The position numbers and the translations under genes are program-made. The notes below the pieces were generated by a model. The model was not told where the DNA came from. It saw nothing but the letters and a program-made list of their open reading frames with translations, and made no database searches. Of a stretch of DNA of 64,000 bases, positions 19,162-37,986 are shown in pieces; the first letter of the stretch is position 1; each line of letters begins with the position of its first letter. The stretch comes from an uncultured Alphaproteobacteria bacterium (GTDB lineage Bacteria > Pseudomonadota > Alphaproteobacteria > Rhizobiales > Beijerinckiaceae): assembly GCA_963816065.1 (NCBI GenBank), contig CAWFJG010000028.1, positions 52,810 through 116,809 of the forward strand. The letters are read 5' to 3'.

Positions 19162-19203
19162 ATTGGACCTCCCTGAAGATCGAGCGCCCAATCGGGGGCA
19201 TTT

Positions 19204-19221
19204 ATTGAACCTATATTCAAT
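19204..19221. promoter_or_regulatory. Putative BetI operator (ATTGA-N8-TCAAT)
   Basis: ATTGAACCTATATTCAAT in the divergent region between the DMG dehydrogenase and choX. Confidence 0.7.
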
Positions 19222-19430
19222 TCGCCTTCTACAGCCAATCCCTCACCCGCCAAAACAGGCAACTATTTCGAGCGACGGACATGCGGTCACCTAGCGAGAA
19301 TTCGAGCAAAAATAACGTTGTTTCGGTATCGTGAGGCTAAATTTCGTGCGTGACAGCCTAACACGCCTATGCTTGAATAACCTTTCAATGGGTCACGCTG
19401 CAAGCGCCCAGAGGACGGAGGAGGAGTGGC

Positions 19431-20381
19431 ATGAAGAGACAGATGGGTGTTGTTGTGCTCGCGGCGGCGGTCGCGCTCGGAGCGTCCGGCGCGTTCGCAG
19501 GCAATTCGGAGGCGTGCAAGACGGTGAAGTTCTCCGACGTCGGCTGGACGGATATCACGTCGACGACGGCGATCGCGTCCCAAATCCTGACCGCGCTGGG
19601 CTACACGCCCAAGGTTACGGTCCTCTCCGTCCCGGTTACCTACACTTCGATGAAGAATAAGGACATTGACGTTTTCCTCGGCAATTGGGAGCCGTCGATG
19701 GAAAATGACCGTAAGCCATATGTCGAAGACAAGTCGGTTGTGGTCGTCGACGCCAACTTGCCAGAAGGAGCAAAATATACACTTGCAGTGCCGCAATATA
19801 CTTTCGATAAAGGTCTGAAGAGTTTTGCTGATATCGCCAAATTCAAGGATTCTCTTCACGGAAAACTTTATGGCATTGAGCCCGGCAACGACGGCAATCG
19901 CCTGGTCCTCGACATGATCAAGGATGGCAAGTTTGGCCTGAAGGACTTCCAGCTTGTCGAGTCGAGCGAGCAGGGCATGCTCTCCGAAGTCGAGAACGCC
20001 ACGCGCCACCATGAAGATGTGGTGTTCCTTGGTTGGGCGCCGCATCCGATGAACGTCAATTTCAAGATCGACTATCTCTCGGGGGGCGACGACATCTTCG
20101 GCCCCAACTACGGCGGCGCCGTCGTCTACACCAACGAACGCGCGGGTTGGGCCGAGGAGTGCCCCAACGCTGCGAAGCTGGTCAAGAATCTCGTGTTCAC
20201 CGTGGATATTGAAAACACGGTGATGAACAAGATCCTGACCGACGGAAAGGACGGGCCGGCCGCGGCCAAGGAATGGATCAAGACCAACCCCAAGGAGCTT
20301 GCGACGTGGCTCGACGGCGTCACGACCTTCGACGGTCAACCCGGGCTGCCGGCGGCGAAGAAGTTTTTCGGGCTCAGCTAA
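19431..20381 (+). CDS. choX: Choline ABC transporter substrate-binding protein
   Basis: Signal peptide; FSDVGWTDI, DVFLGNW, GIEPGNDGN, FLGWAPHPMN. Confidence 0.92.
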   Translation: MKRQMGVVVLAAAVALGASGAFAGNSEACKTVKFSDVGWTDITSTTAIASQILTALGYTPKVTVLSVPVTYTSMKNKDIDVFLGNWEPSMENDRKPYVEDKSVVVVDANLPEGAKYTLAVPQYTFDKGLKSFADIAKFKDSLHGKLYGIEPGNDGNRLVLDMIKDGKFGLKDFQLVESSEQGMLSEVENATRHHEDVVFLGWAPHPMNVNFKIDYLSGGDDIFGPNYGGAVVYTNERAGWAEECPNAAKLVKNLVFTVDIENTVMNKILTDGKDGPAAAKEWIKTNPKELATWLDGVTTFDGQPGLPAAKKFFGLS

Positions 20382-20645: not shown

Positions 20646-21906
20646 ATGCTGGACCGGATCGATAGCCGAACTCGAGTCATTGCTGCGCAACAGGAGGTCC
20701 GGATATTCTCTGGACGCGCCTTTCTACACGGACCCGGATATTTTTGCGGCCGATCTCGAAATCATTTTCGGGCGGCATTGGATCTTTGTCGGCGTAGAGC
20801 CGGATGTCGCGGAGCCGGGCGACGCGATGGTCGTCGACGTCGGCAAAGCCTCGGTGGTTGTCGCGCGGGGCGACGATGGCCAGATGCGCGCCTTTCACAA
20901 CGTGTGCCGGCACCGGGGCGCCCGACTGGTGGAGCAATACAAGACCACAGTCGGCAATCTCGTCTGCCGGTATCACGCCTGGACTTACAACCTCGAAGGC
21001 AAGCTGCTCTTCGCCGAGCACATGGGCAAGGAATTCGATACGCGCTGCCACAACCTCAAGCCCGTGCATATCCGCTCCCTCGAAGGACTTCTCTTCATTT
21101 GTCTCGCTGACGATCCGCCCGCCGACTTCGATGTCATGGCTGCGCGCATGGCGCCCTATCTTGCCCCGCACGACCTCCGCAACGCCAAGGTCGCCTTTGA
21201 GAGCGATCTGATCGAGCCGGGCAACTGGAAGCTGACGATGGAGAACAATCGCGAGTGCTACCACTGCGCGCGAAACCATCCCGAGCTCACCGTGCCGCTG
21301 TTCGCCTACGGCTTCGGCTTCGCGCCGGAGGAACTGGACGACTTGGGGCGCCTCGAAGCCGAGCGCTACGCGGACCTCGTCAAGACGAGCCACACGACCT
21401 GGGAAAGCTGCGGCTTCCCCTCGCAGATGGTCGAACATCTCGACGACATGGCGACAGGCTTCCGCACTGAACGCCTGCCGCTCGATCGCGCAGGCGAGAG
21501 CCACACCACCGACACCAAGGCCGCTTGCCGTAAGCTGCTCGGCTCCATCAGCGATCCGAAGCATGGCGCACTGCACTTCTGGACCCAGCCCAACAGCTGG
21601 CATCATTTCATGAGCGATCACGCGGTGACTTTCTCGGCCATTCCCCTCGATGCAGATCACACGCTGCTTCGGACGAAATGGCTGGTCCACAAGGACGCCG
21701 TCGAGGGAGTCGACTACGATGTCGCCAATCTCGCCGCGGTCTGGCAGGCCACGAATGAGCAGGACAGCGAGTTGGTCGGCCTCTGCCAGAAAGGCGCTCA
21801 TAGTCAAGCGTACGAGCCCGGCCCCTATTCGGCGCACACCGAAATGCTCGTGGACAAGTTCTGCAATTGGTATGTGGGACGCATGCGCGCCCATAACGCT
21901 CGCTGA
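20646..21906 (+). CDS. gbcA: Rieske oxygenase alpha subunit, glycine betaine demethylase (GbcA/Stc2-like); probable +1 insertion near 20664
   Basis: Rieske CRHRG...CRYHAW and NWK...ENNRECYHC..NH motifs; true N-terminus probably MLDRID/AELESLLRNRR. Confidence 0.85.
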
Positions 21907-23019
21907 ATGTCGACCGACGGCGTGAACGCACCTGTCCTTTCCTTCGGCGCTGCGGCTTCGCCGACCTGGGATCCGGAATTGGACGACGCGCTCGTCGTGC
22001 GACGGATTCGCGAGGAGACGGCGGACGTGAAGACGTTCGTCCTCGCAGCCGCGGCTCCTATCCGTTTCGCGTACGAGCCCGGACAGTTCATCACGGTGGC
22101 CCTCGACATCGACGGCGCGCGGATCAATCGCTGCTACACCCTGTCCTCGAGCCCAACGCGGCCGGACGTCGTCTCGATCACCGTCAAGCGGGTTCCCGGC
22201 GGCCCCGTGTCGAACTACCTCCACGACAGGATCGCCCCCGGAGCCGTGTTGCAGGCAAGCGGCCCCATGGGCGAGTTCACCTGCGTACGTCGCCCTGAGC
22301 GGAAGTATCTCTTCCTGTCGGGAGGCAGCGGCGTCACGCCCGTCATGTCGATGGCGCGGACGCATTTCGATCTGGCGACCGGAGCGGACATCGTCTTCCT
22401 GCACAGCGCGCGCACGCCGGCGGACGTCATCTTCCGCCGCGAGCTCGAGCATATGGCGGCGCGCGAACCCGTCTTCCGCTTCGCCGCGATCTGCGAGGTC
22501 GATGCGCCGTTCGAGCCCTGGCATGGACTGCGCGGACGTCTCTCGCGCGCCCATCTTGACGCCGTCGCCCCGGATTTTCTTGATCGCGAGATCTATGTCT
22601 GCGGCCCAAGCCCCTACATGGCCGGCGTGCGCGATCTCTTGCGCGAGGCCGGCTTTGATATGAGCCGCCACCACGAGGAAAGCTTCGTTTTCGCCGAGCT
22701 TGCCAGCACGGAGCCCGAGGCGGCCGCGGAAGCCGCTCAGGGGGTCGAGCCTGCGCGCGCGTTCAAGGTGACTTTCAGCAAGAGCGGCCGCGTCATCGAC
22801 TGCCGAGCGGACATGAACGTCCTCGAGGCGGCGCGTCGCGCCGGCCTTCGCCTGCCCTCATCCTGCACGAAGGGACTTTGCGGGACCTGCAAGTCGAAGC
22901 TTGTCGAGGGGGCGGTGGACATGAAACATGGCGGAGGCATCCGTCAGCGGGAGATCGATGCGGGCCTGGTGCTCATCTGCTGCTCCAGGCCGACAACCGA
23001 TCTCGTCATCGAACGCTAG
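21907..23019 (+). CDS. gbcB: FAD/NAD reductase-2Fe2S ferredoxin subunit of betaine monooxygenase
   Basis: RCYTLSS, SGGSGVTP, YVCGP, CTKGLCGTC...C. Confidence 0.88.
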   Translation: MSTDGVNAPVLSFGAAASPTWDPELDDALVVRRIREETADVKTFVLAAAAPIRFAYEPGQFITVALDIDGARINRCYTLSSSPTRPDVVSITVKRVPGGPVSNYLHDRIAPGAVLQASGPMGEFTCVRRPERKYLFLSGGSGVTPVMSMARTHFDLATGADIVFLHSARTPADVIFRRELEHMAAREPVFRFAAICEVDAPFEPWHGLRGRLSRAHLDAVAPDFLDREIYVCGPSPYMAGVRDLLREAGFDMSRHHEESFVFAELASTEPEAAAEAAQGVEPARAFKVTFSKSGRVIDCRADMNVLEAARRAGLRLPSSCTKGLCGTCKSKLVEGAVDMKHGGGIRQREIDAGLVLICCSRPTTDLVIER

Positions 23020-23220: not shown

Positions 23221-24474
23221 ATGCGTCGCTTCTCTCTCTCCTCCCTTCTCGCCGAAGCCGCGTACGGCCACGAAGGCTGGCAACGCCAGTGGCGGGACCC
23301 GGCCCCCAAAGCGAGCTATGACGCCATCATCATCGGCGGCGGCGGCCATGGCCTCGGTGCGGCGTATTATCTCGCCAAGGAGCACGGCCTCGCGAACATC
23401 GCGGTCCTTGAAAAGGGCTGGATCGGCGGCGGCAACACCGGGCGAAACACGACGATCATCCGGTCGAACTACCTTTATGACGAAAGCGCGGGAATATACG
23501 AACACGCGATGAAGCTCTGGGAAGGTCTGTCCCAGGAGCTGAACTACAACGTCATGTTCTCCCAGCGCGGCGTGCTGATGCTGGCGCACAACCTGCATGA
23601 CGTGCAAAGCCTCAAGCGCCACGTCTACGCGAACCGCCTCAACGGTGTCGACAACGAGTGGCTAACGCCGGAGGAGGCCAAGGCGTTCTGCCCTCCGCTC
23701 AATGTCTCGCCCGCCATCCGATATCCGGTTCTCGGCGCGGCGCTTCAGCGGCGCGGAGGCACGGCCCGTCATGACGCGGTCGCGTGGGGCTACGCCCGCG
23801 CGGCAGATGCGCGCGGCGTCGACATCATCCAGAATTGTGAAGTCACGGCCATCAATCGTGGGCCGAACGGCGCGGTCACCGGGGTCGAGACCACGCGCGG
23901 CGCGATCCGGACGCCGAAGATCGGCGTCTCCGTCGCGGGGCATTCCTCGACGCTCATGGCGATGGCGGGTGTGCGCATGCCGCTCGAAAGTTTTCCGCTT
24001 CAGGCGCTGGTTTCGGAGCCGGTGAAGCCGTGCTTCCCCTGCGTGCTCATGTCCAACGCCGTCCACGCCTACATCTCGCAGTCCGACAAGGGCGAACTGG
24101 TGATCGGCGCCGGCACCGACCAATATGTGTCTTACAGCCAGCAGGGCGGCCTACACATCACCACCCATACATTGGAAGCCATCTGCGAGCTCTTTCCGCA
24201 ATTCTCCAGGATGCGGATGCTCAGGTCCTGGGGCGGCATCGTGGACGTCACGCCCGACCGCTCGCCGATTAGCGGCAAGACGCCGGCGCCCGGCCTCTAT
24301 GTCAATTGCGGCTGGGGCACAGGCGGATTCAAGGCAACTCCCGGGTCGGCCCACGTCTTCGCACATACTATCGCGCGCGACGAGCCCCACCCGATCAACG
24401 CGCCTTTCCACCTCGACCGCTTCCGCACCGGCCGCCTCATTGACGAGGCCGCGGCGGCGGCGGTCGCGCACTGA
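23221..24474 (+). CDS. soxB: Sarcosine oxidase beta subunit
   Basis: [38 protein letters not shown]-terminal AAAVAH. Confidence 0.95.
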
Positions 24475-24485
24475 GTGGACTCCCG

Positions 24486-24806
24486 ATGCTTCTGATCGCC
24501 TGCCCTTATTGCGGCCCGCGGCCCGAGGTGGAGTTCCATTGCGGCGGCGAGGCCCATATCGTCCGCCCCCAGGACCCAGCCGGTCTCGGCGATGCGGAAT
24601 GGGCCGAGTACCTCTATTTCCGCAACAGCGTTAAGGGCGTCCACGCGGAGCGCTGGATCCATGACCACGGCTGCCGGCGATGGTTCAACGCCCTGCGCAA
24701 TACGATGTGCGACGCCTTCCTCGCCACATACGAAATCGGTCAGCCGCGCCCGACCCTGGACGTTTCAGGGGCCTACCTGGCCAGCGAAGGGAAAATCCAG
24801 GCATGA
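24486..24806 (+). CDS. soxD: Sarcosine oxidase delta subunit
   Basis: CPYCGPR...ERWIHDHGCRRWFN zinc motif. Confidence 0.95.
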   Translation: MLLIACPYCGPRPEVEFHCGGEAHIVRPQDPAGLGDAEWAEYLYFRNSVKGVHAERWIHDHGCRRWFNALRNTMCDAFLATYEIGQPRPTLDVSGAYLASEGKIQA

Positions 24807-27800
24807 CGGAGCCCAATCGCCTGCCTAAGGGCGGCCGCGTGGACCGCACGCGGCCCATTCGCTTCACCTTCAACGGGCGGGCGGTCACGGGCTACGCCGG
24901 CGATACGGTGGCGTCGGCGCTGCTGGCCAACGGCGTCCGCCTGATGGGTCGTTCGTTCAAATACCATCGACCGCGCGGCGTCCTGGCTCACGGCGTCGAC
25001 GAGCCGAACGCCCTGCTCAAGGTCGATCGCGGACCAGGTCGGGTGGACCCGAACAATCGCGCCACCGTGACCGAGGCCGTCGACGGCCTCAAGACCTTCT
25101 CGCAGAACCATTGGCCCTCGCTCGAACACGACATCGGCGCCGTGAACGATCTTTTCTCGCCGATCCTGGTCGCCGGGTTTTACTACAAGACTTTCATGTG
25201 GCCGCGCTCCTTCTGGGACAGGCTCTACGAGCCCCAGATCCGCGCCGCAGCCGGCCTCGGGATCGCGCCGCAAACCCCGGACGCCGACCGATACCTGCAC
25301 CGCAACGTCTATTGCGAGGTGCTGGTGGCCGGAGCGGGTCCGACCGGTCTTGCGGCGGCGCTCGCAGCCAGCGCGGCCGGCGCGCGCGTGATCCTCGCAG
25401 ACGAGCAGCCGGAAATGGGGGGCGCGCTTCTGCACGACACCGTTTCCGCCATCGACGGCGTCCCGGCTCTCGTCTGGGTGGAGAAGACGCTCGAAACGCT
25501 GCGCGCGCGCGCGAACGTGACGCTGCTGCCGCGCACCACAGCGTTCGGCTACTACAACCATAACTTTGTCGCGCTCGTCGAGCGGGTGACCGATCACGAA
25601 GCAAAGCCCCTATCGTCCCTGCCGCGCGAGCGTATGTGGCTGGTCCGCGCCACGGAGGTCGTGCTGGCCACGGGCGCGCACGAGCGTCCGCTCGCCTTCG
25701 CCGACAACGATCGTCCCGGCGTCATGCTTGCCGAGAGCGTCCGCGCTTATGTGAACCGCTATGGCGTGGCGCCGGGCAGGCGCATCGTCTTCGCCACCAA
25801 CGGCGCCTCCGCCTACAGGGCGGCCACGGATGCGATGGCCGCCGGGCTTGACGTCACTCTGGTGGACACCCGGCCCGAAGCCGCGATCGGCGCGGAACGG
25901 AGGCTCGCGTCCGGCATCCCGCATCTGACCGGCCACACGGTGGTCGGTTCGACCGGATCGAAGGGGCTCACGGGCCTGATCGTGGCCCCTGTGGACCCTT
26001 CCGGCAGAGTCGGCCCCCGGCGCACGCTGCCTTGCGATTGCGCGGGCGTCTCCGGCGGCTGGACCCCATCGGCGCATCTCTTCTCCCAGTCGCGCGGCAA
26101 GCTCGCCTTCAGGTCCGAGATCGACGCGTTTGTTCCCGGACAGGCGGGGCAAAGGGCGCGCTCCGCCGGCGCGTGCCGGGGGGTTTACGATCTTGGCGCA
26201 ACCCTGTCGGACGGATGGGCCGCCGGGGCGGCCGCGGCCGGGGCGGCCGTTGAGAAGACATTTACGGCGGATCCCCCGACGCCCCAGGGCTTCGTTCCTG
26301 TCCGGGTCCTTCCGACCGACGACGATCCCAAGAAGGTGCGCGCATTTATCGACTTTCAGAACGACGTGACGGCGAAGGACGTCCGCCTCGCGGTACGCGA
26401 AGGATTCGAAAGCGTCGAGCATGTGAAGCGCTACACGACGAACGGCATGGCGACCGATCAGGGCAAGACATCGAACATGGCGGCCCTGGGCCTGCTCTCT
26501 GAGATCCTGCAAAAGGACGTGCCGAAGGTCGGCGCGACAACCTTCCGGCCGCCTTATACGCCGGTCACCTTCGGGGCGATCGTGGGGTCCGCCAGCGGCG
26601 AATTGTTCGACCCCATTCGCAAGGCGCCGTTGCACGACTGGGCGGAGGCGCAGGGCGCGAAATTCGAGAACGTCTCGCTCTGGCGGCGCGCCTGGTACTT
26701 CCCGAAGGCGGGGGAAGATAGGCGTGCGGCGGTGGCGCGCGAGTGCAAGGCGGTGCGCGAGGGGGTCGGCATTTTCGACGCTTCGACCCTCGGCAAGATC
26801 GAAGTCGTCGGGCCGGACGCCGCGGAATTCCTGAATCGCATCTACATCAACGCCTGGCTCAAGCTCGAACCGGGCAAGTGCCGCTACGGGCTGATGCTGA
26901 AGGAAGACGGCTTCGTCTTCGATGACGGCGTCGTCGCGCGCCTCGCGCCGGACCGTTTCCATGTCACGACCACGACCGGCGGCGCGCCGCGCGTGCTCGC
27001 CCACATGGAGGACTATCTTCAAACCGAATGGCCCGATCTGCAGGTCTTTGTCACCTCCACGACGGAAGAGTGGGCGGTGATCGCCCTCCAGGGCCCAAAG
27101 GCGCGCGAGACGCTCGCGCCGCTCGTCTCCGACGTCGACGTCTCGGGCGAAGCCTTTCCGCACATGGCCATCCGGACCGGCCATGTGATGGGCGTTCCGG
27201 CGCGCATCTTCAGGGTCTCGTTCACCGGCGAACTCGGATATGAGATCAACGTGCCTTCGGATTACGCCCGCGCCGTCTGGGAGGCGCTCTGCGAACACGG
27301 GCGGCCCTTTGGCGTCACGCCCTACGGCACTGAAACGATGCATGTCCTGCGCGCCGAGCGCGGCTTCATCATCGTCGGTCAGGAGACCGACGGCACGGTC
27401 ACCCCGGATGATCTTGGCCTCGGCGGCATGGTGTCGAAGGCGAAGCGCGACTTCGTCGGCAAGCGCTCCCTGACGCGTCCAGACATGACGCTCGCCGACC
27501 GCAAACAACTGGTTGGGCTCCTGAGCCTCGACGGGCGCACCGTAGTCGAGGAAGGGGCGCAGATCGTCGAGGACACGAGCCAGTCCGTTCCGATGAAGAT
27601 GCTCGGGCACGTCACGTCGTCATATTTCAGTCCGACTTGCGGTCACCCGATCGCCATGGCGCTTGTTTCGGGCGGCCGGGGCCGCATGGACCAGACCCTC
27701 CATGCGACCACGCCTTCCGGCTTCACGGCGGTGAAAGTGGTCGCCCCAGTCTTCTTCGACGCCAAGGGCGCCCGGGTGAACGGCGCAGGCGCCAGGGAAT

Positions 27801-27814
27801 TGATCGATGCTTGA
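24803..27814 (+). CDS. soxA: Sarcosine oxidase alpha subunit
   Basis: RSFKYHRPRG, KRYTTNGMATDQGK, C-terminal GcvT domain; ATG 24803 overlaps the soxD stop. Confidence 0.95.
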   Translation: MTEPNRLPKGGRVDRTRPIRFTFNGRAVTGYAGDTVASALLANGVRLMGRSFKYHRPRGVLAHGVDEPNALLKVDRGPGRVDPNNRATVTEAVDGLKTFSQNHWPSLEHDIGAVNDLFSPILVAGFYYKTFMWPRSFWDRLYEPQIRAAAGLGIAPQTPDADRYLHRNVYCEVLVAGAGPTGLAAALAASAAGARVILADEQPEMGGALLHDTVSAIDGVPALVWVEKTLETLRARANVTLLPRTTAFGYYNHNFVALVERVTDHEAKPLSSLPRERMWLVRATEVVLATGAHERPLAFADNDRPGVMLAESVRAYVNRYGVAPGRRIVFATNGASAYRAATDAMAAGLDVTLVDTRPEAAIGAERRLASGIPHLTGHTVVGSTGSKGLTGLIVAPVDPSGRVGPRRTLPCDCAGVSGGWTPSAHLFSQSRGKLAFRSEIDAFVPGQAGQRARSAGACRGVYDLGATLSDGWAAGAAAAGAAVEKTFTADPPTPQGFVPVRVLPTDDDPKKVRAFIDFQNDVTAKDVRLAVREGFESVEHVKRYTTNGMATDQGKTSNMAALGLLSEILQKDVPKVGATTFRPPYTPVTFGAIVGSASGELFDPIRKAPLHDWAEAQGAKFENVSLWRRAWYFPKAGEDRRAAVARECKAVREGVGIFDASTLGKIEVVGPDAAEFLNRIYINAWLKLEPGKCRYGLMLKEDGFVFDDGVVARLAPDRFHVTTTTGGAPRVLAHMEDYLQTEWPDLQVFVTSTTEEWAVIALQGPKARETLAPLVSDVDVSGEAFPHMAIRTGHVMGVPARIFRVSFTGELGYEINVPSDYARAVWEALCEHGRPFGVTPYGTETMHVLRAERGFIIVGQETDGTVTPDDLGLGGMVSKAKRDFVGKRSLTRPDMTLADRKQLVGLLSLDGRTVVEEGAQIVEDTSQSVPMKMLGHVTSSYFSPTCGHPIAMALVSGGRGRMDQTLHATTPSGFTAVKVVAPVFFDAKGARVNGAGARELIDA

Positions 27815-28358
27815 CGCGATGCGCAGGGTCCCCCGCTCCTCAATTCTCCCGCCGCAGAGGGATGGCGGCATGATCGCCGTCCTTGCGCCGGCCGACCGCT
27901 TCGCGCTTCGATTGCAGGGCGCCCGCGACGAAACGATCGCGGGCTTCGACCTCGGCGGCCCGATCAACTCCGTGCGCGGCGACACGGATCGCTTCGCGGC
28001 CAGGCTCGGCCCAGACGAATGGCTTCTCATCCAGCCCGAAGGGGACGGCCATTCGACGCTCGAAGCCCTGCAAACGGGGATCGCCAATCGCCGTCACTCG
28101 CTGGTCGCGGCGGGACACCGAAACGTCGCGATCGCCGTGCGCGGTCGCCACGCCTCGACGGTGCTGAGCGCCGGCGTTCCGCTCGACCTCGGGGACCGCG
28201 GGTTTCCCGTGGGCATGGCGACGCGCACGCTCCTTGGCAAGGCCGAGGTGGCGCTGGTTCGCCCGGCTCCCGGAGATCACTTCCGCGTCGAGTGCTGGCG
28301 TTCTTTCGCGCCCTATGTCCACGCCTTTCTGGTGAACTCCGCGCGGGAATTCGCATGA
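27807..28358 (+). CDS. soxG: Sarcosine oxidase gamma subunit
   Basis: LGPDEWL, VECWRSFAPY. Confidence 0.9.
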   Translation: MLDAMRRVPRSSILPPQRDGGMIAVLAPADRFALRLQGARDETIAGFDLGGPINSVRGDTDRFAARLGPDEWLLIQPEGDGHSTLEALQTGIANRRHSLVAAGHRNVAIAVRGRHASTVLSAGVPLDLGDRGFPVGMATRTLLGKAEVALVRPAPGDHFRVECWRSFAPYVHAFLVNSAREFA

Positions 28359-28478
28359 CGACGGTTGTTTGGATCAAAATATTGTACAGTCGCTCGACAG
28401 GCGATCGATCGAGGACGCCAGGCGGGGCTTGTCCGCAAGCGGCCGACATCCCTACAACGCGTAGACGAGGAGGGCGCC

Positions 28479-29324
28479 GTGGAAGAGTGGTTTGCCGAGC
28501 CGAAAATCCCTTTGGGTCTATGGGCCAAAATAGGGATCACGTGGCTTCAAGATAACGCCGCCGGCTTTTTCGACGCGGTCACTGCGATCATCGACTTCTC
28601 GGTCGATGGATTCACCACGGTTCTCCTTCATATTCCGTTCCTCGTCGTAGTCTTCGCCATCGCGGGGCTCGGCTATTGGCTTCACCGCTCCTGGAAGCTC
28701 GCGCTGTTTGTTGTCGTCGCGTTCCTGATCATCGCCAACCTCGGCTACTGGGAAGCGACCGTACAGACGATCTCCCTTGTTGGCTTTGCCACGCTTGCCA
28801 GCGTCCTTGTCGGCGTGCCTCTCGGCATCGCCTCGGCCCACAGGTCCTGGCTCTATTCGTTCATGCGGCCGCTGCTCGATCTGATGCAGACGCTCCCGAC
28901 CTTCGTCTATCTCATCCCGACGCTGGTGCTGTTCCACCTCGGCTCGGCCCCAGGCCTGATCTCGACCGTGATCTTCGCCATCCCCGCGCCGATCCGGTTG
29001 ACCCATCTCGGCATCATCTCCGTGCCCTCTTCACTCAAGGAGGCCGGCCAAGCCTTCGGCGCCACGAATCGGCAGCTCCTGTGGAAGGTGGAACTGCCTT
29101 ATGCGCTGCCGACGATCATGGCCGGCGTCACGCAATGCATTATGCTGAGCCTGTCGATGGTGGTGATTGCGGCGCTGGTCGGCGCGGCCGGTCTCGGCAC
29201 GCCCGTGGTCCGAGCTCTCGGAACGGTCAACATTCCGATGGGCATCGAGGCCGGCATGTCGATCGTCTTGCTCGCAATCGTGCTCGATCGCGTCTTCCGT
29301 AACCCCGATCGAAAGGGCGCCTAA
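28479..29324 (+). CDS. choW: Choline ABC transporter permease
   Basis: KIPLG, LDLMQTLPTFVYLIP, EAGQAFG EAA-like loop; GTG start after GAGGAG. Confidence 0.92.
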   Translation: MEEWFAEPKIPLGLWAKIGITWLQDNAAGFFDAVTAIIDFSVDGFTTVLLHIPFLVVVFAIAGLGYWLHRSWKLALFVVVAFLIIANLGYWEATVQTISLVGFATLASVLVGVPLGIASAHRSWLYSFMRPLLDLMQTLPTFVYLIPTLVLFHLGSAPGLISTVIFAIPAPIRLTHLGIISVPSSLKEAGQAFGATNRQLLWKVELPYALPTIMAGVTQCIMLSLSMVVIAALVGAAGLGTPVVRALGTVNIPMGIEAGMSIVLLAIVLDRVFRNPDRKGA

Positions 29325-30523
29325 TGTCCGCCGTTGTCTTCGACCATGTCGACATCGTTTTCGGAGGGAAGCAGGCTGAGGCTCTCGCGCTGATCGACAA
29401 AGGCGCAACCCGGGACGAGATTCTGAAGACGACCAATGTGGTGCTCGGCGCCGCGGGGATCGATCTCACGGTGGAGCCCGGCGAGATCTGCGTGCTCATG
29501 GGCCTGTCCGGCTCGGGCAAGTCGACGATCCTGCGCGCGGTCAATGGGCTCAACAAAGTGGCGCGCGGCCGATTGCTGGTGAAGCACGGCGAGGGCGCAA
29601 TCGACGTCGCGCATTGTTCAGACGCCGAGCTTCGAATGCTGCGCACAAGCCGCGTGGCGATGGTTTTCCAACAGTTCGCGCTTCTGCCCTGGCGGACGGT
29701 CGCGCAGAACGTCGGGTTGGGGCTCGAACTGCGTCGCACCCCCAAGGCGCAAATCGACAAGATCGTGGCGGAGAAGCTCGCCATGGTGGGCCTGACGCAA
29801 TGGGCCGGCAAGTACGGTCATGAACTTTCCGGCGGCATGCAGCAGCGCGTCGGACTCGCGCGCGCCTTCGCCACCGACGCGGACATCCTGCTTATGGACG
29901 AACCGTTCTCGGCGCTCGACCCGCTGATCCGCGACAAATTGCAGGACGAGTTGCTCATGCTCCAGTCGGAGTTGAAGAAGACGATCATCTTCGTAAGTCA
30001 CGACCTCGACGAGGCGCTGAAGATCGGCAACAAGATCGCCATCCTCGAAGGCGGCCGCATCGTCCAGTGCGGGGGCGCGGAGGACATTCTCCTGCGGCCT
30101 GCAGACGCGTATGTGGCCGAATTCGTCAAGCACATGAACCCGCTGAACGTGCTGCGCGGCGGCTCGTTGATGACGCCCGCGGCCGCCCTCGCTCGCACCG
30201 ATGACGAAATGCACCTCGACCGGAACGGCCGAATCCGACTGAAGCTGGATCGCGAAGGCCGGCCGCTCGGGGTGACCCTCGACGGACGCGCGGGCGCGAT
30301 GGCGGTCGCCGACCGCGCCACCGGGCAAATTCAGGCGACCAATCCGGACGACGTCGACATCGTCGTGGCGCCCATCGACCTCAGAATGCGCTCGGCGATT
30401 GCACTCCGGAGTTTTTCCGGCAATCCGATCGTGCTCGTTGACGATCTGGGGCGCATGGCGGGTCTCTGCGGCGACGACGAAATCTATCGCGCTCTCCTGC
30501 AGCAGCGGCGGCCGGCTGCATAA
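29324..30523 (+). CDS. choV: Choline ABC transporter ATP-binding protein
   Basis: GLSGSGKS, LSGGMQQRVGLARA, DEPFSALDPLIR. Confidence 0.92.
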   Translation: MSAVVFDHVDIVFGGKQAEALALIDKGATRDEILKTTNVVLGAAGIDLTVEPGEICVLMGLSGSGKSTILRAVNGLNKVARGRLLVKHGEGAIDVAHCSDAELRMLRTSRVAMVFQQFALLPWRTVAQNVGLGLELRRTPKAQIDKIVAEKLAMVGLTQWAGKYGHELSGGMQQRVGLARAFATDADILLMDEPFSALDPLIRDKLQDELLMLQSELKKTIIFVSHDLDEALKIGNKIAILEGGRIVQCGGAEDILLRPADAYVAEFVKHMNPLNVLRGGSLMTPAAALARTDDEMHLDRNGRIRLKLDREGRPLGVTLDGRAGAMAVADRATGQIQATNPDDVDIVVAPIDLRMRSAIALRSFSGNPIVLVDDLGRMAGLCGDDEIYRALLQQRRPAA

Positions 30524-31034: not shown

Positions 31035-32955
31035 TCACGTTCCGCCCGGCCCACTGGCTATGACCGTCCGTCGCAAAGGCGGCGCGTCGGTGTCGATGCG
31101 TCCTCCTCTCCACCAGACGCCCTCGGACTCGCACAGTCCGTCATCGTTGACGAAACTCAGCCGCCGATCGCACGTGGCGACGAGGACGGCGGCCCGCTCC
31201 GAATCCCCCGCGAAGACGCCGAGCGTTTCCGCCGCGCTGTCCTTGCCCAGCTCAACCGCGACCTCATCATCATTGCTGAAAGATTGGAGGGCGACGACGG
31301 GAGCGAATGCATCGGCGCGCACAAGAGCGGAGGCCGGGCCGCAGCCGTCGATGACGGTCGGCGCAAGAAAAAGGGGCTCGGACGGCGAAGCGAACCGCAT
31401 CTTGCCGCCCGCCAGGAGCGATGCGCCGGCCCGCAAGTCCATCGCGAGCAGGCTCTCGATCCATTGCCCGTGTTCTCGCGACAGCAGCGGACCGACCTCA
31501 GTCTCCTGCGCCAGCGGATCGCCCAGCCGAAGCGCGGTCGCCACCGCCGCACAGGCTTCGGCGAAGCGCCGATGAACCGATTGATGGACATAGACCCGGC
31601 TCTGACTGGCGAAGGTCGAACCGGTCCAAGCCCGGCTGCCGAGCAGAACCGAACGAGACGCCTTTTCCAGATCGGCGCCGGGCAAGATGACGGTCGCCGC
31701 CTTTGGACCCGCATGTCCGAGCCTGGCTTCGTCATCGTCTCCGGAACCCCGCGACGCCTCTCCCGACGCAAAGGTGAGAACGCCCTCCGGCAAGCCGGCG
31801 CTGGCAAGGAGCGCGGCTACTTCGGCGATCGTTTGTGCGGCGCGAGGATCGGGCCGCAGGAGGAGCGCGTCACCGCGGGCCATGGCCCTCGCGAAGGCGC
31901 CGAGTTCGAGGACGGGACGGCTCCAGTGAAGGGCTCCCCCAATGAGGCGGGCTGCCGCGTGGCGACGCTCCTCGGTCCGGCCCGCCTCCAGTTCGATCCG
32001 CACCCTGCCCATTCCGCGCGCCATGCCCGCAGCGTCTTCGAGCCCGATGACCGCGGCTGCCAGGTCCGCCGACGTCGCCCGAATTGGGCGCCTCGGTCTG
32101 CCGAGTCTCGAGACGCGCCAACGCTTGCGCCTCGCCCCGCAGAGCATTCGCACATTTGTGCAGGATGCGGCCCCGGTCCGGGGGCGTCAGCGTCTCCCAA
32201 TCCGCAAGCCTCCGCCCTGCCCCTCGCGCTGCATGGGCGACCTGGACATCTCCACCGGGAAAAACCCAGAAGGACTTCGGCTCGATGGTCGGAAAGCGGC
32301 CTCCGACGCGGCGGGGCGAAGACAGCGGGTGGGAAACCGAGAAACGAGCATCGGTGGAGGCTCTTTGGGCGGCGCTGGCCAACAAGCCCTCCACCAAGGC
32401 TCGAATCAGAGTGCGAGCGGAGCCGCCGTCCGCGCCAGTCGCAGCGTCGCGCGGCGCGGCGACGTGCGATCGCAGCCAGAGACCGTCAATCCCTGCGGCG
32501 ATGAGAACTGCGCAAAGGCCGATGCAGTCTTCCGGAACAAGACCGTGGAGCGCGTGGCGCAGATTCGAGATCATGCGTCGCTCGTAAATTCGCTGGACCC
32601 GCTGATAGCGAGCCGAGTGGGCCATTTGGCCCCAGAAAGCGAGCCACACCGCGCCAGTCCGCCGGTCGAACTCCTCGTCCGCCAGAGCGGCTAGGCAAAC
32701 CGCGAACAGACGCTCGCGGCGCGTCGTTGCGGCGCGCAATCCCGAGGCGGTCGATCGGGCCAGCCGCGCCGCCATGAAACGGAGCGTCGCCTCCAGGAGG
32801 CCGTCCTTGTCGCCAAAATAATGAGCGAACAGACCAATCGAGACTTTCGCGCGCCGGGCAATCTCGCTCAACGAGGCGGCGTTGAAGCCAACCTCCGCGA
32901 GCGTTTCGATCGTGGCTTCTATCAACTGGCGCCGCCGGGCCGCTTCATCGCTCAT
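31035..32955 (-). CDS. betI: BetI (TetR) repressor fused to a degenerate aldehyde-dehydrogenase-like domain (about 639 aa); +1 frameshift near 32093
   Basis: N-terminal RRRQLIEAT...HYFGDKDGLLEAT...WLAFW...IDGLWLR; continues without a stop into an ALDH fold (DRGRILHKCANALR, LARLETRQT[G]RPI, AGLPEGV, RVYVHQSV, LGDPL..ETEVGPL, PTVI, FAPV). Confidence 0.8.
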
Positions 32956-32993: not shown

Positions 32994-33011
32994 ATTGAAT
33001 GAATATTCATT
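32994..33011. promoter_or_regulatory. Putative BetI operator (near betI start)
   Basis: ATTGAATGAATATTCATT, one mismatch to ATTGA-N8-TCAAT. Confidence 0.65.
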
Positions 33012-33170: not shown

Positions 33171-33188
33171 ATTGAATGCTCATTCAAT
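33171..33188. promoter_or_regulatory. Putative BetI operator (upstream of betB)
   Basis: ATTGAATGCTCATTCAAT, near-perfect palindrome 40 bp before the betB ATG. Confidence 0.8.
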
Positions 33189-33228
33189 TGTTGTCGCGAA
33201 CGCGACGGCGTCGGAGCAGGACTCGGGC

Positions 33229-34698
33229 ATGATCGAAAGCCGGAGCTATCGGCCCTTCATCGGCGGAAAATTTGCAAGGCCCGCGGGGCGCCGATCCTTT
33301 CGGTCGATCAACCCCGCAAATGGGGAGGTCCTTGCCGAGGTCGAGCACGCGACCCGCGAAGATCTCGAGGCGGCCGTTGAGTCCGCGGCGCGCGGCCAGG
33401 CGGTCTGGGGCCGGACGCCTGCCCGCGACCGCGGTCGCGTTCTTCAGCGGGCGGTTGCGCTGCTTCGTGCGCGCAACGACGAGCTCGCACGCCTGGAAAC
33501 GCTCGACACCGGCAAGCCGATCGCCGAGACGCGGGCGGTGGACATCGTCACCGGAGCGGACGTCCTCGAATATTACGCCGGGTTGGCTCCTTCGCTCGAG
33601 GGCCGTCAGATCCCTTTACGGGAGACGTCCTTCGTCTATACGCGGAGAGAACCGCTTGGCGTCGTCGCGGGGGTCGGCGCCTGGAACTATCCGATCCAGA
33701 TTGCGCTCTGGAAATCGGCTCCCGCTCTTGCCGCTGGCAATGCGATGATCTTCAAACCCAGCGAGATCGCCCCGCTGTCCGCGTTCAAGCTGGCCGAGAT
33801 TTACGCCGAAGCGGGCCTGCCTGACGGCGTCTTCAATGTGCTCCCGGGCTTGGGCGCGGAAGTCGGTGCGTGGCTCACTGGGCATCCGCGGGTCGCGAAG
33901 GTGTCCTTCACGGGAGGCTCGGCGACCGGGGAAAAGGTCTTGGCCAGAGCCGCCAGTTCGACGCTGAAGGACGTAACGCTGGAACTCGGCGGCAAATCGC
34001 CCTTGATCGTTCTGGACGACGCCGATCTCGACCGCGCTGCCGACATCGCTATGGCCGCCAATTTCTTCAGCTCCGGCCAAGTCTGCACGAATGGAACGCG
34101 CGTCTTTGTGCCGGCTTCGGTCAGGAACGCGTTCGAGAGTCGGATTTTGGAGCGTGTCGCCCGGATCCGCTGCGGCGACCCGCTCGACGAGGCGACGAAT
34201 TTCGGGCCGCTCGCCAGCTTTGCGCATATGGAGAAGGTGCTCGGCTACATCCGTTCCGGCGTAGAGGAAGGGGCGCGCCTAATCGCGGGCGGCGGGCGCC
34301 TCGGCGGCGCGTTTGCCGCCGGGGCCTATGTGGCGCCAACCGTCTTCACCGACTGCGCCGACGGCATGGCGATTGTTCGCGACGAGATCTTCGGTCCCGT
34401 CATGAGCATCCTCCCCTACGAGGCCGAGGAGGAGGCGCTTGCGAGGGCCAACGCCACCAGCTACGGCCTCGCCGCCGGAGTCGTGACCGGGCGGCTCGAC
34501 CGCGCCCACCGGCTCGCTCATGCGCTCGAGTCGGGCATCTGCTGGATCAACACCTGGGGCAAGTCGCCGCCGGAGATGCCGGTCGGCGGATACAAGCAAT
34601 CGGGCCTGGGGCGCGAGAACGGCGTCGAGACGCTTGAGCGCTACACGCGCGTCAAGTCGATCCAGGTCGAACTCGCGGACTTCGCCCCCGTCTTCTGA
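33229..34698 (+). CDS. betB: Betaine aldehyde dehydrogenase
   Basis: [21 protein letters not shown] (Glu), [12 protein letters not shown] (Cys), EIFGPV. Confidence 0.95.
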
Positions 34699-34733: not shown

Positions 34734-36440
34734 ATGACGCGGGAATATGACTTCATTATCGTCGGGGCGGGTTCAGCCGGGAATGTGCTGGCCGCGCGGC
34801 TCACTGAAGACGCCGATGTGCGCGTTCTTCTGCTCGAGGCCGGTGGGCCCGACTATCGTTTCGATTTCCGCACCCAGATGCCCGCGGCGCTCGCCTACCC
34901 GCTTCAGGGCCGACGCTACAACTGGGCGTATGTCACGGATCCCGAGCCGTATATGAACGACCGGCGCATGGAATGCGCCAGAGGCAAAGGCCTCGGGGGC
35001 TCATCGCTGATCAACGGCATGTGCTATATCCGAGGCAACCCGCTCGATTACGACAACTGGGCCCAACTCCCTGGGCTCTCAGACTGGACCTACTCCGACT
35101 GCCTGCCCTACTTTCGCAAAGCGGAGGCCCGCGATGTCGGACCGGACGCCTATCACGGAGGCGATGGGCCGCTCAGTGTCGCCACGGCCAAACCCGGCCG
35201 CAACGTCTTGTACGAGGCCTTGATCGAGGCGGGTGTGCAGGCCGGCTACCCTCGCACCTCCGACCTGAACGGTTATCAGCAGGAAGGGTTCGGGCCGATG
35301 GACCGGAGCGTCACGCGCGGCGGCCGGCGGTCGAGCACCGCCCGAGGTTACCTCGACCAGGCCCGCGAGCGACGGAACCTCGCCATCGTCACGCACGCGC
35401 TCACCGACCGCATTATGTTCGAGGGCCGACGCGCGATCGGCGTCGCCTATTCCGCGAGGGGGAGCCGGGAGACCATCATTGCGCGGGCGCGTCGGGAGGT
35501 CTTGGTCTGTTCCGGCGCGATCGCCTCGCCGCAGCTTCTGCAGCGCTCCGGCGTCGGTCCGGCGGATTGGTTGCGGCGCATCGACGTGCCCGTCGTTCTC
35601 GACCTGCCTGGAGTTGGCGAGAATCTGCAGGACCACCTCGAGATCTACATGCAGTACGAGTGCGTGCAGCCGGTCTCGCTGGCTTACGCCCTCAAGCCCT
35701 GGAACCAGCCAGCCATCGGCGCGCAATGGCTTTTCAGGGGGACAGGCGTCGGGTCCAGCAACCAGTTCGAGGCAGGCGGCTTCATACGCTCCGGTCCCGA
35801 CTTCGCTTGGCCGAACCTGCAATACCATTTCCTGCCGCTGGCGATCAATTACAACGGCAGCAAAGCCGTGAAATCCCACGGTTTTCAGGCGCACGTCGGC
35901 TCGATGCGCTCGCCGAGCCGCGGCCGGGTCCGGTTGACGTCGCGCGATCCGCGCATCCATCCGAGCGTCCTCTTCAACTACATGCAGACCGACCAGGACT
36001 GGCGCGAGTTTCGGGACGCCATTCAAATCACGCGCGAAATCGTGGCGCAACCGGCTCTCGACCCCTACCGGGGCCGCGAGATCAGCCCGGGCGCGGCGGC
36101 TCGGACCGACGCGGAATTGGACGATTTCGTCCGCGCCCATGCCGAAACCGCCTTCCATCCGTCCTGCTCCTGCAGGATGGGAGAGGATGCGCTGGCGGTG
36201 GTGGACGGCCAGGGTCGCGTGCACGGCCTTGAAGCGCTGAGAATCGTCGACGCTTCGATCATGCCTCTGATCATAACCGGCAACCTCAATGCGCCAACGA
36301 TCATGCTGGCGGAGAAGATCGCCGACGGTATTCGCGGTCGTGCGCCGCTGCCGCGCAGCGACGCGCCCTACTATGTTGCAGCGGACAAACCCACGCGTCG
36401 GAACCCCGCTCGAGAAGTTGAGAGCGAGATAGTAGACTAA
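34734..36440 (+). CDS. betA: Choline dehydrogenase (GMC oxidoreductase)
   Basis: [45 protein letters not shown]. Confidence 0.95.
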
Positions 36441-36527
36441 GTTGGCGTCGGTTCTTTGGCGCCAATACGATCGCAATAGGCGTGGAGTTCGAACGCCGCT
36501 TCATATCGAGGGCTCACAGAGGACGCC

Positions 36528-36872
36528 ATGAACAATATCCTCAACACCTACGCGGCGCTAGGTGTCGCAATCGTCCTTGAAGTCGCGGGCACGACGTTTT
36601 TACAGTTATCGGAGCAACTGACCAGGTTGCTACCGACCTGCGTCATGGGTCTGTGTTATATCGCCAGCTTTTACTTTCTCTCTCTCGCCTTGAGAGCGAT
36701 GCCTATCGGACTGGCCTACGCGATCTGGAGCGGTCTTGAAATCGTACTGATTTCGATCATCGGCTACGTGAAATTCCGTCAAGCGCTCGATACGCCGGCA
36801 TTGGTCGGCGTCGGTCTCATCGTCGCCGGCGTCGCGATCGTGAACGTATTCTCGAAGTCTATCGTCCACTGA
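36528..36872 (+). CDS. SMR-family (EmrE/QacE-like) efflux transporter
   Basis: Four TM helices, AIVLEVAGT conserved Glu, PIGLAYAIWSG. Confidence 0.9.
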   Translation: MNNILNTYAALGVAIVLEVAGTTFLQLSEQLTRLLPTCVMGLCYIASFYFLSLALRAMPIGLAYAIWSGLEIVLISIIGYVKFRQALDTPALVGVGLIVAGVAIVNVFSKSIVH

Positions 36873-37053: not shown

Positions 37054-37986
37054 AAGTCTGACTCGAAAGTTCATGCGGGATTGCAGAGTTTTCGCAGCAT
37101 GAGGCGGATAGAGGCGAAACGCAGGAACGTGAGGGCTGTGAGGTTGAGGTTCTCCCAATCCTTGGCGAGCCTTCGGCAGCGGTTGAGCCAGGCGATCGTT
37201 CGCTCGACGATGCAACGCTTGGGCAGCTTGACAAACCCCTTCGCCTGATCGGATCGTTTGACGATGTCTATCTTGAGGTGAGCCAAAATCTTGGCGACCG
37301 CTTCGGCGAAGATCGGCCCTTGGTACGCGGCGTCGGCGAACAGTTTTTCAAGATAGGGGAAGCGGCCGAGCACCGTCGAAAGCAACAAAGCGCCGCCGTC
37401 GCGATCCTGGACGTCGGCGGAATGAACGATAGCCTGCATCAGCAGCCCTTGGGTGTCGACGAGAAGGTGACGCTTCTTGCCCTTGATCTTCTTTCCCGCG
37501 TCGAACCCGTGCGGGTCAATCGAGGCCCCCCTTTTTCGGCGCTTTTCACGCTCTGGCTGTCGATGATGGCGACGGTTGGACTGGCCTCGCGTTCGGCCTG
37601 CTCGCGGCATTTTTCGTAAAGCGCGTCATGCACGCGATCCAGAACGCCATCAATGCCCCAGTCGTGAAAGTAACGATAGACGGTGCTGTGCGGCGGCAAA
37701 TCCTTGGGAAGATAACGCCATTGGCATCCGGTGCTCAGCACGTACATCACGGCGTTGAGCGCCTCACGCATGTTGGTTTCTCGTCTTCGGCCTCCCCGCC
37801 TCGCTGGAGGAATGAGCGGTTCGACATGCGCCCACTCCTCGTCCGTCAGATCGCTCGGGTATCGCAGATGATCGCGCTTGTATTTCGCCCGGTTCTTGTT
37901 CGTCCACATTGAAGGCCCCCGATTCGGTTCGCCGCCGATGAAATCACAACCAATTCGTGGGACTTAAGAACTTTCGGAACCGACAC
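37054..37986 (-). mobile_element. IS5-family insertion sequence with two-ORF frameshifted transposase (37439-37909 and 37071-37610)
   Basis: YPSDLTDEEW, TGCQWRYLP, IIDSQSVK, GKKIKGKKRH, DAAYQG, IVERTIAW; slippery GAAAAAGGGGGG near 37526-37537; imperfect TIRs sharing CGAAAGTTC. Confidence 0.9.

Follow-up and report, generated by a model that had tools for sequence, protein, structure and literature searches.

A conserved BetI-type regulator fused to a degenerate aldehyde dehydrogenase domain in a choline catabolic locus of an uncultured Beijerinckiaceae bacterium

Introduction

Canonical BetI is the choline-responsive TetR-family repressor of the bet genes, a protein of approximately 195–220 aa known from E. 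coli, S. meliloti, and R. pomeroyi (BetI1). To our knowledge, TetR regulators are almost always small two-domain proteins. Here, we describe a betI gene that runs into a degenerate aldehyde dehydrogenase (ALDH) domain in a 64,000-nucleotide stretch of DNA (the window) from an uncultured bacterium of the Beijerinckiaceae (GenBank assembly GCA_963816065.1, contig CAWFJG010000028.1, positions 52,810 to 116,809). An earlier interpretation, made from the letters alone and called the sequence-only reading below, regarded the ALDH part as a catalytically dead, repurposed duplicate of betB, the betaine-aldehyde dehydrogenase (BADH) gene next to it.

Results

Architecture of the fusion gene

A 361-aa minus-strand open reading frame (ORF; 32955..31870) holds three Pfam domains in a single stop-free frame: TetR_N (PF00440, aa 11–56, E 1.5e-13), the BetI-type TetR_C_6 (PF13977, aa 80–192, E 4e-20), and a stub of Aldedh (PF00171, aa 236–288, profile positions 28–80, E 2.3e-05). 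The remaining Aldedh homology lies in a second frame (32153..31035, E 1.6e-39, Pfam), separated from the first by a single extra base that is treated below. The proposal that BetI continues without a stop into ALDH sequence was thus borne out. The length first given to the ALDH part, approximately 450 codons, was not, as it consists of approximately 404 codons preceded by a linker of approximately 40 codons (Table 1).

The BetI module scored 157.6 bits with the NCBIfam equivalog NF001978, above the 118-bit cut-off, and the homologs P0140 and P0133 reached 168–178 bits with TIGR03384, under its cut-off of 201 bits. The gene is linked to other bet genes and has palindromic candidate operators in its promoter region, as expected of a BetI. 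By these sequence-based membership tests the fusion protein is a BetI, and it is a member of the ALDH superfamily by homology only. The open frame alone proves little, because the region has a GC content of approximately 68% and a spurious 528-aa ORF lies antisense to it; the real evidence comes from the homologs and from substitution rates. Production of the ALDH-like part on its own, from a start codon inside the gene, was considered; one public gene call (P0003) does begin at an internal Met, but the junction shows neither a conserved Met nor an intergenic gap in the family.

Table 1. Features of the fusion gene and of the surrounding locus (window coordinates)
Feature	Position	Strand	Description
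BetI module, codons 1–195	32371..32955	-	TetR_N helix-turn-helix and TetR_C_6 ligand/dimerization domain
Linker, codons 196–235	32251..32370	-	Degenerated N-terminal ALDH strands, predicted disordered
ALDH-fold pseudoenzyme domain, BetB-derived	31035..32250	-	Approximately 404 codons with stop; interrupted by one extra base
Single extra G (ACC-G-AGG)	32094	-	Shifts the frame; upstream frame stops at 31870
betB, genuine betaine-aldehyde dehydrogenase	33172..34698	+	Divergent; NF009725 811.8 bits (cut-off 593), all catalytic motifs; true start probably the ATG near 33229
betA, choline dehydrogenase (GMC oxidoreductase)	34734..36440	+	Pfam GMC_oxred_N and GMC_oxred_C
Putative BetI box 1	32994..33011		ATTGAATGAATATTCATT, imperfect 18-bp palindrome adjoining the fusion-gene start; 2 mismatches to ATTGAATGnnCATTCAAT
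Putative BetI box 2	33171..33188		Perfect 8+2+8 palindrome ATTGAATG-CT-CATTCAAT, upstream of betB
Second box-like pair	19204-19221 and 19372-19389		168 bp apart, 3 mismatches each
Dimethylglycine-dehydrogenase-like gene	16599-19191	-	Identified with Pfam
proX	19431-20381
gbcA-like and gbcB-like genes	20680-23019
soxB, soxA, soxG	23221-28358
proW, proV	28365-30523
SMR gene	36528-36872

Loss of catalytic and cofactor motifs

Motif losses were read from an alignment with the neighboring BetB, which confirmed that the catalytic Cys, Glu, and Asn and the FTG segment are all lost. The Asn motif WNYP appears as HWSRP, the Glu motif ELGGK as (F/L)GHAGPK, and the Cys motif GQVCTN as GSTFAS. KPSE, with its NAD-binding Lys, is replaced by RPDP or QPDP, the NAD segment GxxxxG…FTG is deleted with a short, variable acidic stretch in its place, and the C-terminal P(F/x)GGxKxSG motif is gone. 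The loss of these three elements (the KPSE Lys, the GxxxxG…FTG segment, and the PFGGxKxSG motif) makes NAD binding unlikely. The Asn, Glu, Cys, FTG, and C-terminal motifs are missing in 18 of 18 aligned full-length degenerate members of the family. The domain failed the membership tests for both the catalytic triad and the NAD site, and it is not an enzyme. A PutA-type trigger enzyme has an active enzyme domain controlling DNA binding, and the fusion does not belong to this class as its enzyme domain is dead.

The Tyr following the catalytic Asn is replaced by Arg, and the Trp at Asn+8 by Ala. We take these Tyr and Trp positions to be two of the aromatic-box residues that hold the trimethylammonium group in structures of BADH and aminoaldehyde dehydrogenase. 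At the old active site, close members of the family strongly conserve motifs of their own (HWSRP, RAWTGSTFASQ, and GxAGPKAAT), and in the wider family these sites drift, as in WTGSTFASQ, WRASDFLSE, and WARARSLSE.

Family of fused homologs

More than 30 public proteins of 620–685 aa, forming at least 10 clusters at 50% identity, have the same architecture and the same dead motifs. A search among proteins of near length yielded five close relatives (70–82% identity), every one a truncated or contig-cut piece, of which one (P0008) retains the C-terminal half of BetI in frame; beyond these five, that search had no match above 30% identity. Among longer proteins, 11 full-length fusions (624–731 aa) with PF00440, PF13977, and PF00171 share 38–80% identity with the ALDH-like part of the window, and P0140 (639 aa) is the closest intact homolog. 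A profile search of 1.84 billion representatives, combined with Pfam, added seven further fused clusters at 50% identity (P0145, P0146, P0149, P0154, P0176, P0212, and P0254) and a partial fused protein (P0158). The check for TetR_N, TetR_C_6, and Aldedh in one protein that had been proposed with the sequence-only reading therefore finds this architecture in many public proteins, and homologs keep the fusion.

In Methylobacterium nodulans ORS 2060, the 677-aa fusion (WP_015934072.1) is encoded by pMNOD01, a finished plasmid. Other carriers are Methylorubrum salsuginis, M. suomiense, and Methylorubrum sp. POS3 (657 aa), Methylopila sp. M107 (626 aa), and a metagenome-assembled genome (MAG) of the Parvularculaceae (621 aa). 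M. aquaticum MA-22A, like M. nodulans an isolate with a finished genome, has an intact copy within a 705-codon open frame.

Closer to the window, a related-locus search of genome contigs returned one true relative, locus L013 of a sister MAG, along with two ordinary ALDHs, and the same search of metagenome contigs returned an unrelated ALDH only. A DNA search in 40 relatives gave chance-level matches only. A protein search of 400 genomes of the family found the fusion in the window alone, which is weak evidence of absence as five candidates per genome were scored. The fusion is the sole strong BetI-type gene in this 80%-complete genome, and betI was detected in 2 of 37 genomes of the genus, indicating that the bet locus is accessory and was probably acquired.

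Two candidates were rejected. L032, a 348-aa open frame from another family of the order, is a TetR protein of the usual kind whose frame stays open far upstream. P0123 (731 aa) had looked like a third architecture and is a chimeric or rearranged short contig in which the antisense strand of betA is joined to betI. The first ~145 residues of this protein, from a 2354-bp NCBI contig, match a spurious antisense betA ORF (35079-36476 of the window, minus strand) with the join at HYFGDK, and it shows how long spurious ORFs become in such GC-rich DNA.

Full-text searching, which had most subscription journals outside its reach, turned up no publication in which BetI is fused to an ALDH or to BetB. 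RefSeq and UniProt already hold the dead-domain fusions under the plain name “transcriptional regulator BetI”. The architecture, which the sequence-only reading did not know from any description, hence seems undescribed in papers and is familiar to databases; it appears to be unstudied rather than unseen.

Selection on the dead domain

The ratio of nonsynonymous to synonymous substitution rates (dN/dS) was estimated by the Nei-Gojobori method against the syntenic locus L013 (CAVYON010000001.1, 88% nucleotide identity) after removal of three single-base indels, with 95% bootstrap confidence intervals (CI). The ALDH-like domain had a dN/dS of 0.33 (CI 0.23-0.46), and neutral decay of this part was thus not borne out for the pair. 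The values were 0.17 (CI 0.08-0.30) for the BetI module and 0.71 (CI 0.26-1.92) for the 40-codon linker, with 0.12 (CI 0.07-0.17) for betB, 0.13 (CI 0.08-0.19) for betA, 0.06 (CI 0.02-0.11) for proV, and 0.08 (CI 0.02-0.17) for proW. The dead domain is under purifying selection that is looser than that on the real enzymes, and the linker is nearly free. Mean pairwise identity among 18 family members was highest in the BetI part (0.66), followed by the catalytic-domain fold (0.45), the C-terminus (0.22), and the linker (0.17). Twenty-six of the 33 near-invariant positions of the dead domain are also present in BetB and are therefore fold residues.

Origin from BetB and predicted structure

The dead domain is 25% identical to the neighboring BetB (25–31% over the loci compared). 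When the dead domains of P0140 and P0133 were scored with the NCBIfam ALDH models, the two BADH equivalogs NF009725 and TIGR01804 came first (154–167 bits), 35–40 bits ahead of the next-best models (125–128 bits), though their scores are far under the BetB equivalog cut-offs of 593 and 669 bits. Maximum-likelihood analysis of ALDH domains united the dead ones in one clade (SH-aLRT 98), which branches beside P0150, a Komagataeibacter fusion, and BetB, away from other ALDHs; this placement is provisional, as the tree comes from a quick search and has long branches.

The AlphaFold model of P0140 (mean predicted local distance difference test (pLDDT) score 84), calculated for this protein alone, has confident TetR and ALDH folds, the latter at pLDDT 85–98, joined by a disordered linker (residues 202–235, pLDDT <50). 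The oligomerization hairpin (E318-330) and the C-terminal strand (E629-632) are both present, the strand at a low confidence of pLDDT ~47–65. A Foldseek search with this model gave ALDH9A1 and bacterial BADHs as top PDB matches (E to 1e-23, target template modeling score 0.65–0.70).

Profile scores, fold matches, and the tree together support descent of the dead domain from BetB, of which it is an old derivative. The betB origin claimed by the sequence-only reading is thereby upheld, but the domain is not a recent duplicate of the neighboring betB, which is ruled out by the 25% identity.

Catalytic BetI::BetB fusions

Fusions with an intact enzyme part also exist. P0150 (698 aa) consists of BetI and a complete BetB with all motifs intact (NF009725, 778 bits) and stands for 86 sequences in one 90% cluster, which come from many gammaproteobacterial MAG contigs. 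A Komagataeibacter saccharivorans plasmid (NZ_CP036405.1; L024 4998-7076) encodes a 692-aa BetI::BetB protein (WP_243705386.1) that is annotated as betB and retains the catalytic motifs. Here, betA follows directly, the stretch shown contains no separate betB gene, and the fusion gene is preceded by two box-like sites with a spacing of 84 bp. In tblastn searches, betI and betB aligned as one piece in several plasmid records that annotate them as separate genes, which suggests that the two genes are often adjacent in the same frame.

The catalytic fusions may be trigger enzymes, and their sequences make them look like intermediates and likely precursors of the dead-domain family. Along the simplest and likely path, loss of the betI stop codon would first have produced a catalytic BetI::BetB fusion, a separate betB would then have taken over catalysis, and the active site of the fused copy would have decayed afterwards.

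Locus context and candidate operators

The window carries a choline-to-glycine catabolic island, whose betA shares 84% identity with the betA annotated in M. nodulans. The SMR gene is immediately followed by two overlapping ORFs (37071-37909, minus strand) that look like a transposase. All four pseudo-fusion loci for which DNA is available have a separate divergent betB-betA pair, with or without choline transporter genes.

The 216-bp gap between the fusion gene and betB holds the AT-rich boxes 1 and 2, 177 bp apart. The palindrome ATTGAATGnnCATTCAAT with up to 3 mismatches has 5 matches in the window versus 0.11 expected. The same twin boxes precede the fusion gene in three other loci, with a spacing of 170 bp in L013 and of 175 bp in both M. 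nodulans and M. aquaticum. The second box-like pair lies where the dimethylglycine-dehydrogenase-like gene and proX-gbcA-gbcB-soxBAG-proWV, all assigned with Pfam, diverge from each other, on which basis the fusion protein may tentatively be assigned control of betaine catabolism as well.

The published betI box is ATTGACG·CGTCAAT (PMC12442346); the outer half-sites ATTGA and TCAAT of the palindromes match it, with 8 rather than 4 bases between them. As an imperfect control of small size, the 1.5-kb flanks of canonical, short betI loci in other families of the order were scanned and showed one composite box.

Frameshift in this copy

The window reads ACC-G-AGG-CGC-CCA-ATT at approximately 32094, where a pairwise DNA alignment with L013 located the extra G. 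L013 and all protein homologs read through this site (…LETxxTRRPIRAT…). The BetI-ALDH junction lies approximately 280 nt upstream of the extra G, so the frameshift does not create the fusion, and the sequence-only reading had placed the junction correctly with respect to a single +1 error. A programmed frameshift was rejected, as there is no homopolymer or repeat run around the base and every homolog is in a single frame there.

The extra G is probably an assembly error rather than a real mutation. It occurs in no homolog, and indels of this kind are found elsewhere. The sister MAG L013 has four single-base indels (locus positions 4828, 5462, 6816, and 6943), two of them insertions in the betI part of the fusion gene and two deletions in betB, which explains why P0004 is a 448-aa truncated call and P0140, from the same 90% cluster, is intact. 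In the window, the dimethylglycine-dehydrogenase-like gene is split inside FAO_M into two overlapping ORFs in different frames, one with DAO (17929-19191) and one with FAO_M from profile position 22, GCV_T, and GCV_T_C (16599-18008); this second apparent frameshift of the window could be an assembly indel or another lesion affecting the pathway. Elsewhere in the assembly, pieces of an ileS-like gene are spread over four or more reading frames. As gauges of assembly indels, rpoB (a 195-position fragment only) and rpoC (not found in the genome) were uninformative; together with the split ileS-like gene they are signs of local assembly problems (C26:148356-150688 (-); C11:14462-15064), and the genome is 80% complete despite being in 32 contigs. 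In M. suomiense, the intact 657-aa protein and split calls of 444, 179, and 77 aa share one 90% cluster.

A real lesion would mean recent pseudogenization of this copy only, leaving a 361-aa product in which BetI ends in a short stub of the ALDH, with the tail out of frame and the dead domain no longer made. It is the less probable explanation but deserves weight since the extra G is outside any homopolymer, since gyrA, parC, dnaE, and dnaE2 are intact in the assembly and betA, betB, proV, and proW in the window, and since the BetI module would remain complete in a locus that is accessory in the genus. However, the lesion is a single one, the 350 codons downstream of it are undamaged and 82% identical to P0140, and the split genes in this assembly and in the sister MAG, as well as the split M. 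suomiense calls beside intact ones, point to indel errors. A true frameshift is compatible with any view of the family.

Discussion

We are highly confident in the identity and conservation of the BetI-dead-ALDH fusion. When the bridging mechanism discussed below is included in the judgment together with identity and conservation, it is still rather probable that the gene is a copy of a conserved, unstudied BetI variant.

Like canonical BetI, the fusion has the two Pfam domains, passes NF001978, is linked to betA and betB, and has palindromes with ATTGA…TCAAT outer half-sites. It differs in approximately 440 extra C-terminal residues (linker and dead ALDH fold), in half-sites that are 8 rather than 4 nt apart, and in boxes paired approximately 175 bp apart instead of the single composite box of the canonical loci scanned in the same order. 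The dead domain resembles BetB/ALDH9-type enzymes in its best sequence model, best fold match, nearest tree neighbor, and preserved oligomerization elements, but lacks the catalytic triad, the NAD elements, and the C-terminal motif, and scores 154–167 rather than 593–669 bits. The catalytic BetI::BetB fusions share the domain order, BetI and then ALDH, and are unlike the dead-domain family in that their ALDH part is a full BetB.

PutA, a trigger enzyme composed of a ribbon-helix-helix DNA-binding domain, proline dehydrogenase, and an ALDH-superfamily pyrroline-5-carboxylate dehydrogenase, is likewise a catabolic-pathway repressor fused to an ALDH-superfamily domain of the same pathway (PMC12041015). 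Unlike in the fusion, the ALDH domain of PutA is active, its DNA-binding fold is ribbon-helix-helix and not TetR, and its switch is driven by redox state and the membrane. The vertebrate ALDH16A1 is also an ALDH fold without a catalytic triad and has been proposed to act through protein-protein interaction (PMC12041015), but it is eukaryotic, has no DNA-binding domain, and carries a different extra C-terminal domain.

By analogy with other BetIs, the BetI module would repress both the divergent betB-betA genes and its own gene through the two 18-bp palindromes approximately 175 bp apart, and the second box pair in front of the betaine-catabolism genes is probably also a target. Choline would be perceived by TetR_C_6, as in characterized BetIs. 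A disordered linker of approximately 35 residues is predicted to connect this module to the dead ALDH fold of approximately 400 residues, which may serve mainly for additional oligomerization or bridging, joining two BetI dimers in such a way that both operators would be held cooperatively. Tentatively, and at less than even odds, we favor this bridging role over the sensing of betaine aldehyde, since the conserved positions are mostly those of the fold, the hairpin and the C-terminal strand survive in the model, the ancestral ligand sites are destroyed, and the operators are paired approximately 175 bp apart in four genomes. Somewhat more doubtful is the specific form in which ALDH-type dimerization or tetramerization would make the repressor bivalent, so that it could clamp both operators and loop the divergent promoter region.

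Several observations weigh against bridging and looping. The spacing of the operators ranges from 170 to 177 bp, so helical phasing is not conserved, and the twin boxes could be explained equally well as one operator per divergent promoter. The motifs that close members conserve at the old active site could mean a new ligand pocket, with drift in distant members. The C-terminal strand is modeled with low confidence, and the dN/dS values come from a single genome pair.

Other roles for the domain were considered. It could be a functionless relic, a decaying betB remnant that is open only since stop codons are rare in GC-rich DNA. The abundance of long spurious ORFs at this GC content would fit, as would the faster evolution of the ALDH-like domain relative to BetI and betB, but more than 30 homologs, with identities as low as 38% and from several genera and finished genomes, keep the frame uninterrupted, the upper bound of the domain's dN/dS is 0.46, its predicted ALDH fold is confident, and the nearly neutral linker shows what decay looks like at this locus. 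We regard a relic as very improbable and as already largely refuted. Binding of betaine aldehyde, glycine betaine, or NAD(H) by the dead BetB domain, with a signal to BetI, is unlikely to a lesser degree. The galactokinase-derived Gal3 is the model for such a ligand sensor, and the domain does come from an enzyme of the pathway, is under purifying selection, and in close members has family-specific motifs exactly at the former active site; the catalytic BetI::BetB fusions also suggest an ancestral trigger-enzyme stage. Yet the presumed aromatic-box Tyr and Trp are replaced by Arg and Ala and the NAD site is gone, making it unlikely that betaine aldehyde, a ligand suggested by the sequence-only reading, is sensed through the ancestral pocket. 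Moreover, the motifs at the old active site vary in the wider family, the near-invariant positions are largely generic ALDH fold residues, and the TetR_C_6 domain of characterized BetIs already senses choline.

Between these two in probability, and quite improbable, is a partnership in which the domain and the real BetB would assemble into mixed dimers or tetramers of the ALDH type, so that the amount or state of BetB would titrate the repressor. Oligomerization elements of the ALDH fold are kept in the model and a genuine betB adjoins the fusion in all four pseudo-fusion loci, but co-location with betB is expected for any BetI, identity to the neighboring BetB is low with long branches in the tree, and the C-terminus is divergent.

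It is unusual for a conserved TetR regulator to come with a dead, 400-residue version of the enzyme under its control. Annotation obscures it, as the dead fusions are named plain “BetI” and the catalytic fusions plain “betB”, and error-prone assemblies break the dead fusions into two calls, a BetI and a supposed “aldehyde dehydrogenase family protein” incapable of catalysis. All stages are extant, from separate betI and betB through the active BetI::BetB fusion to the dead fusion beside a fresh betB, and culturable Methylobacterium strains make this a tractable case of an enzyme becoming a regulatory pseudoenzyme domain. If the bridging or looping role is true, the family would represent a stepwise series from operon neighbors to a trigger enzyme and on to a pseudoenzyme regulatory domain.

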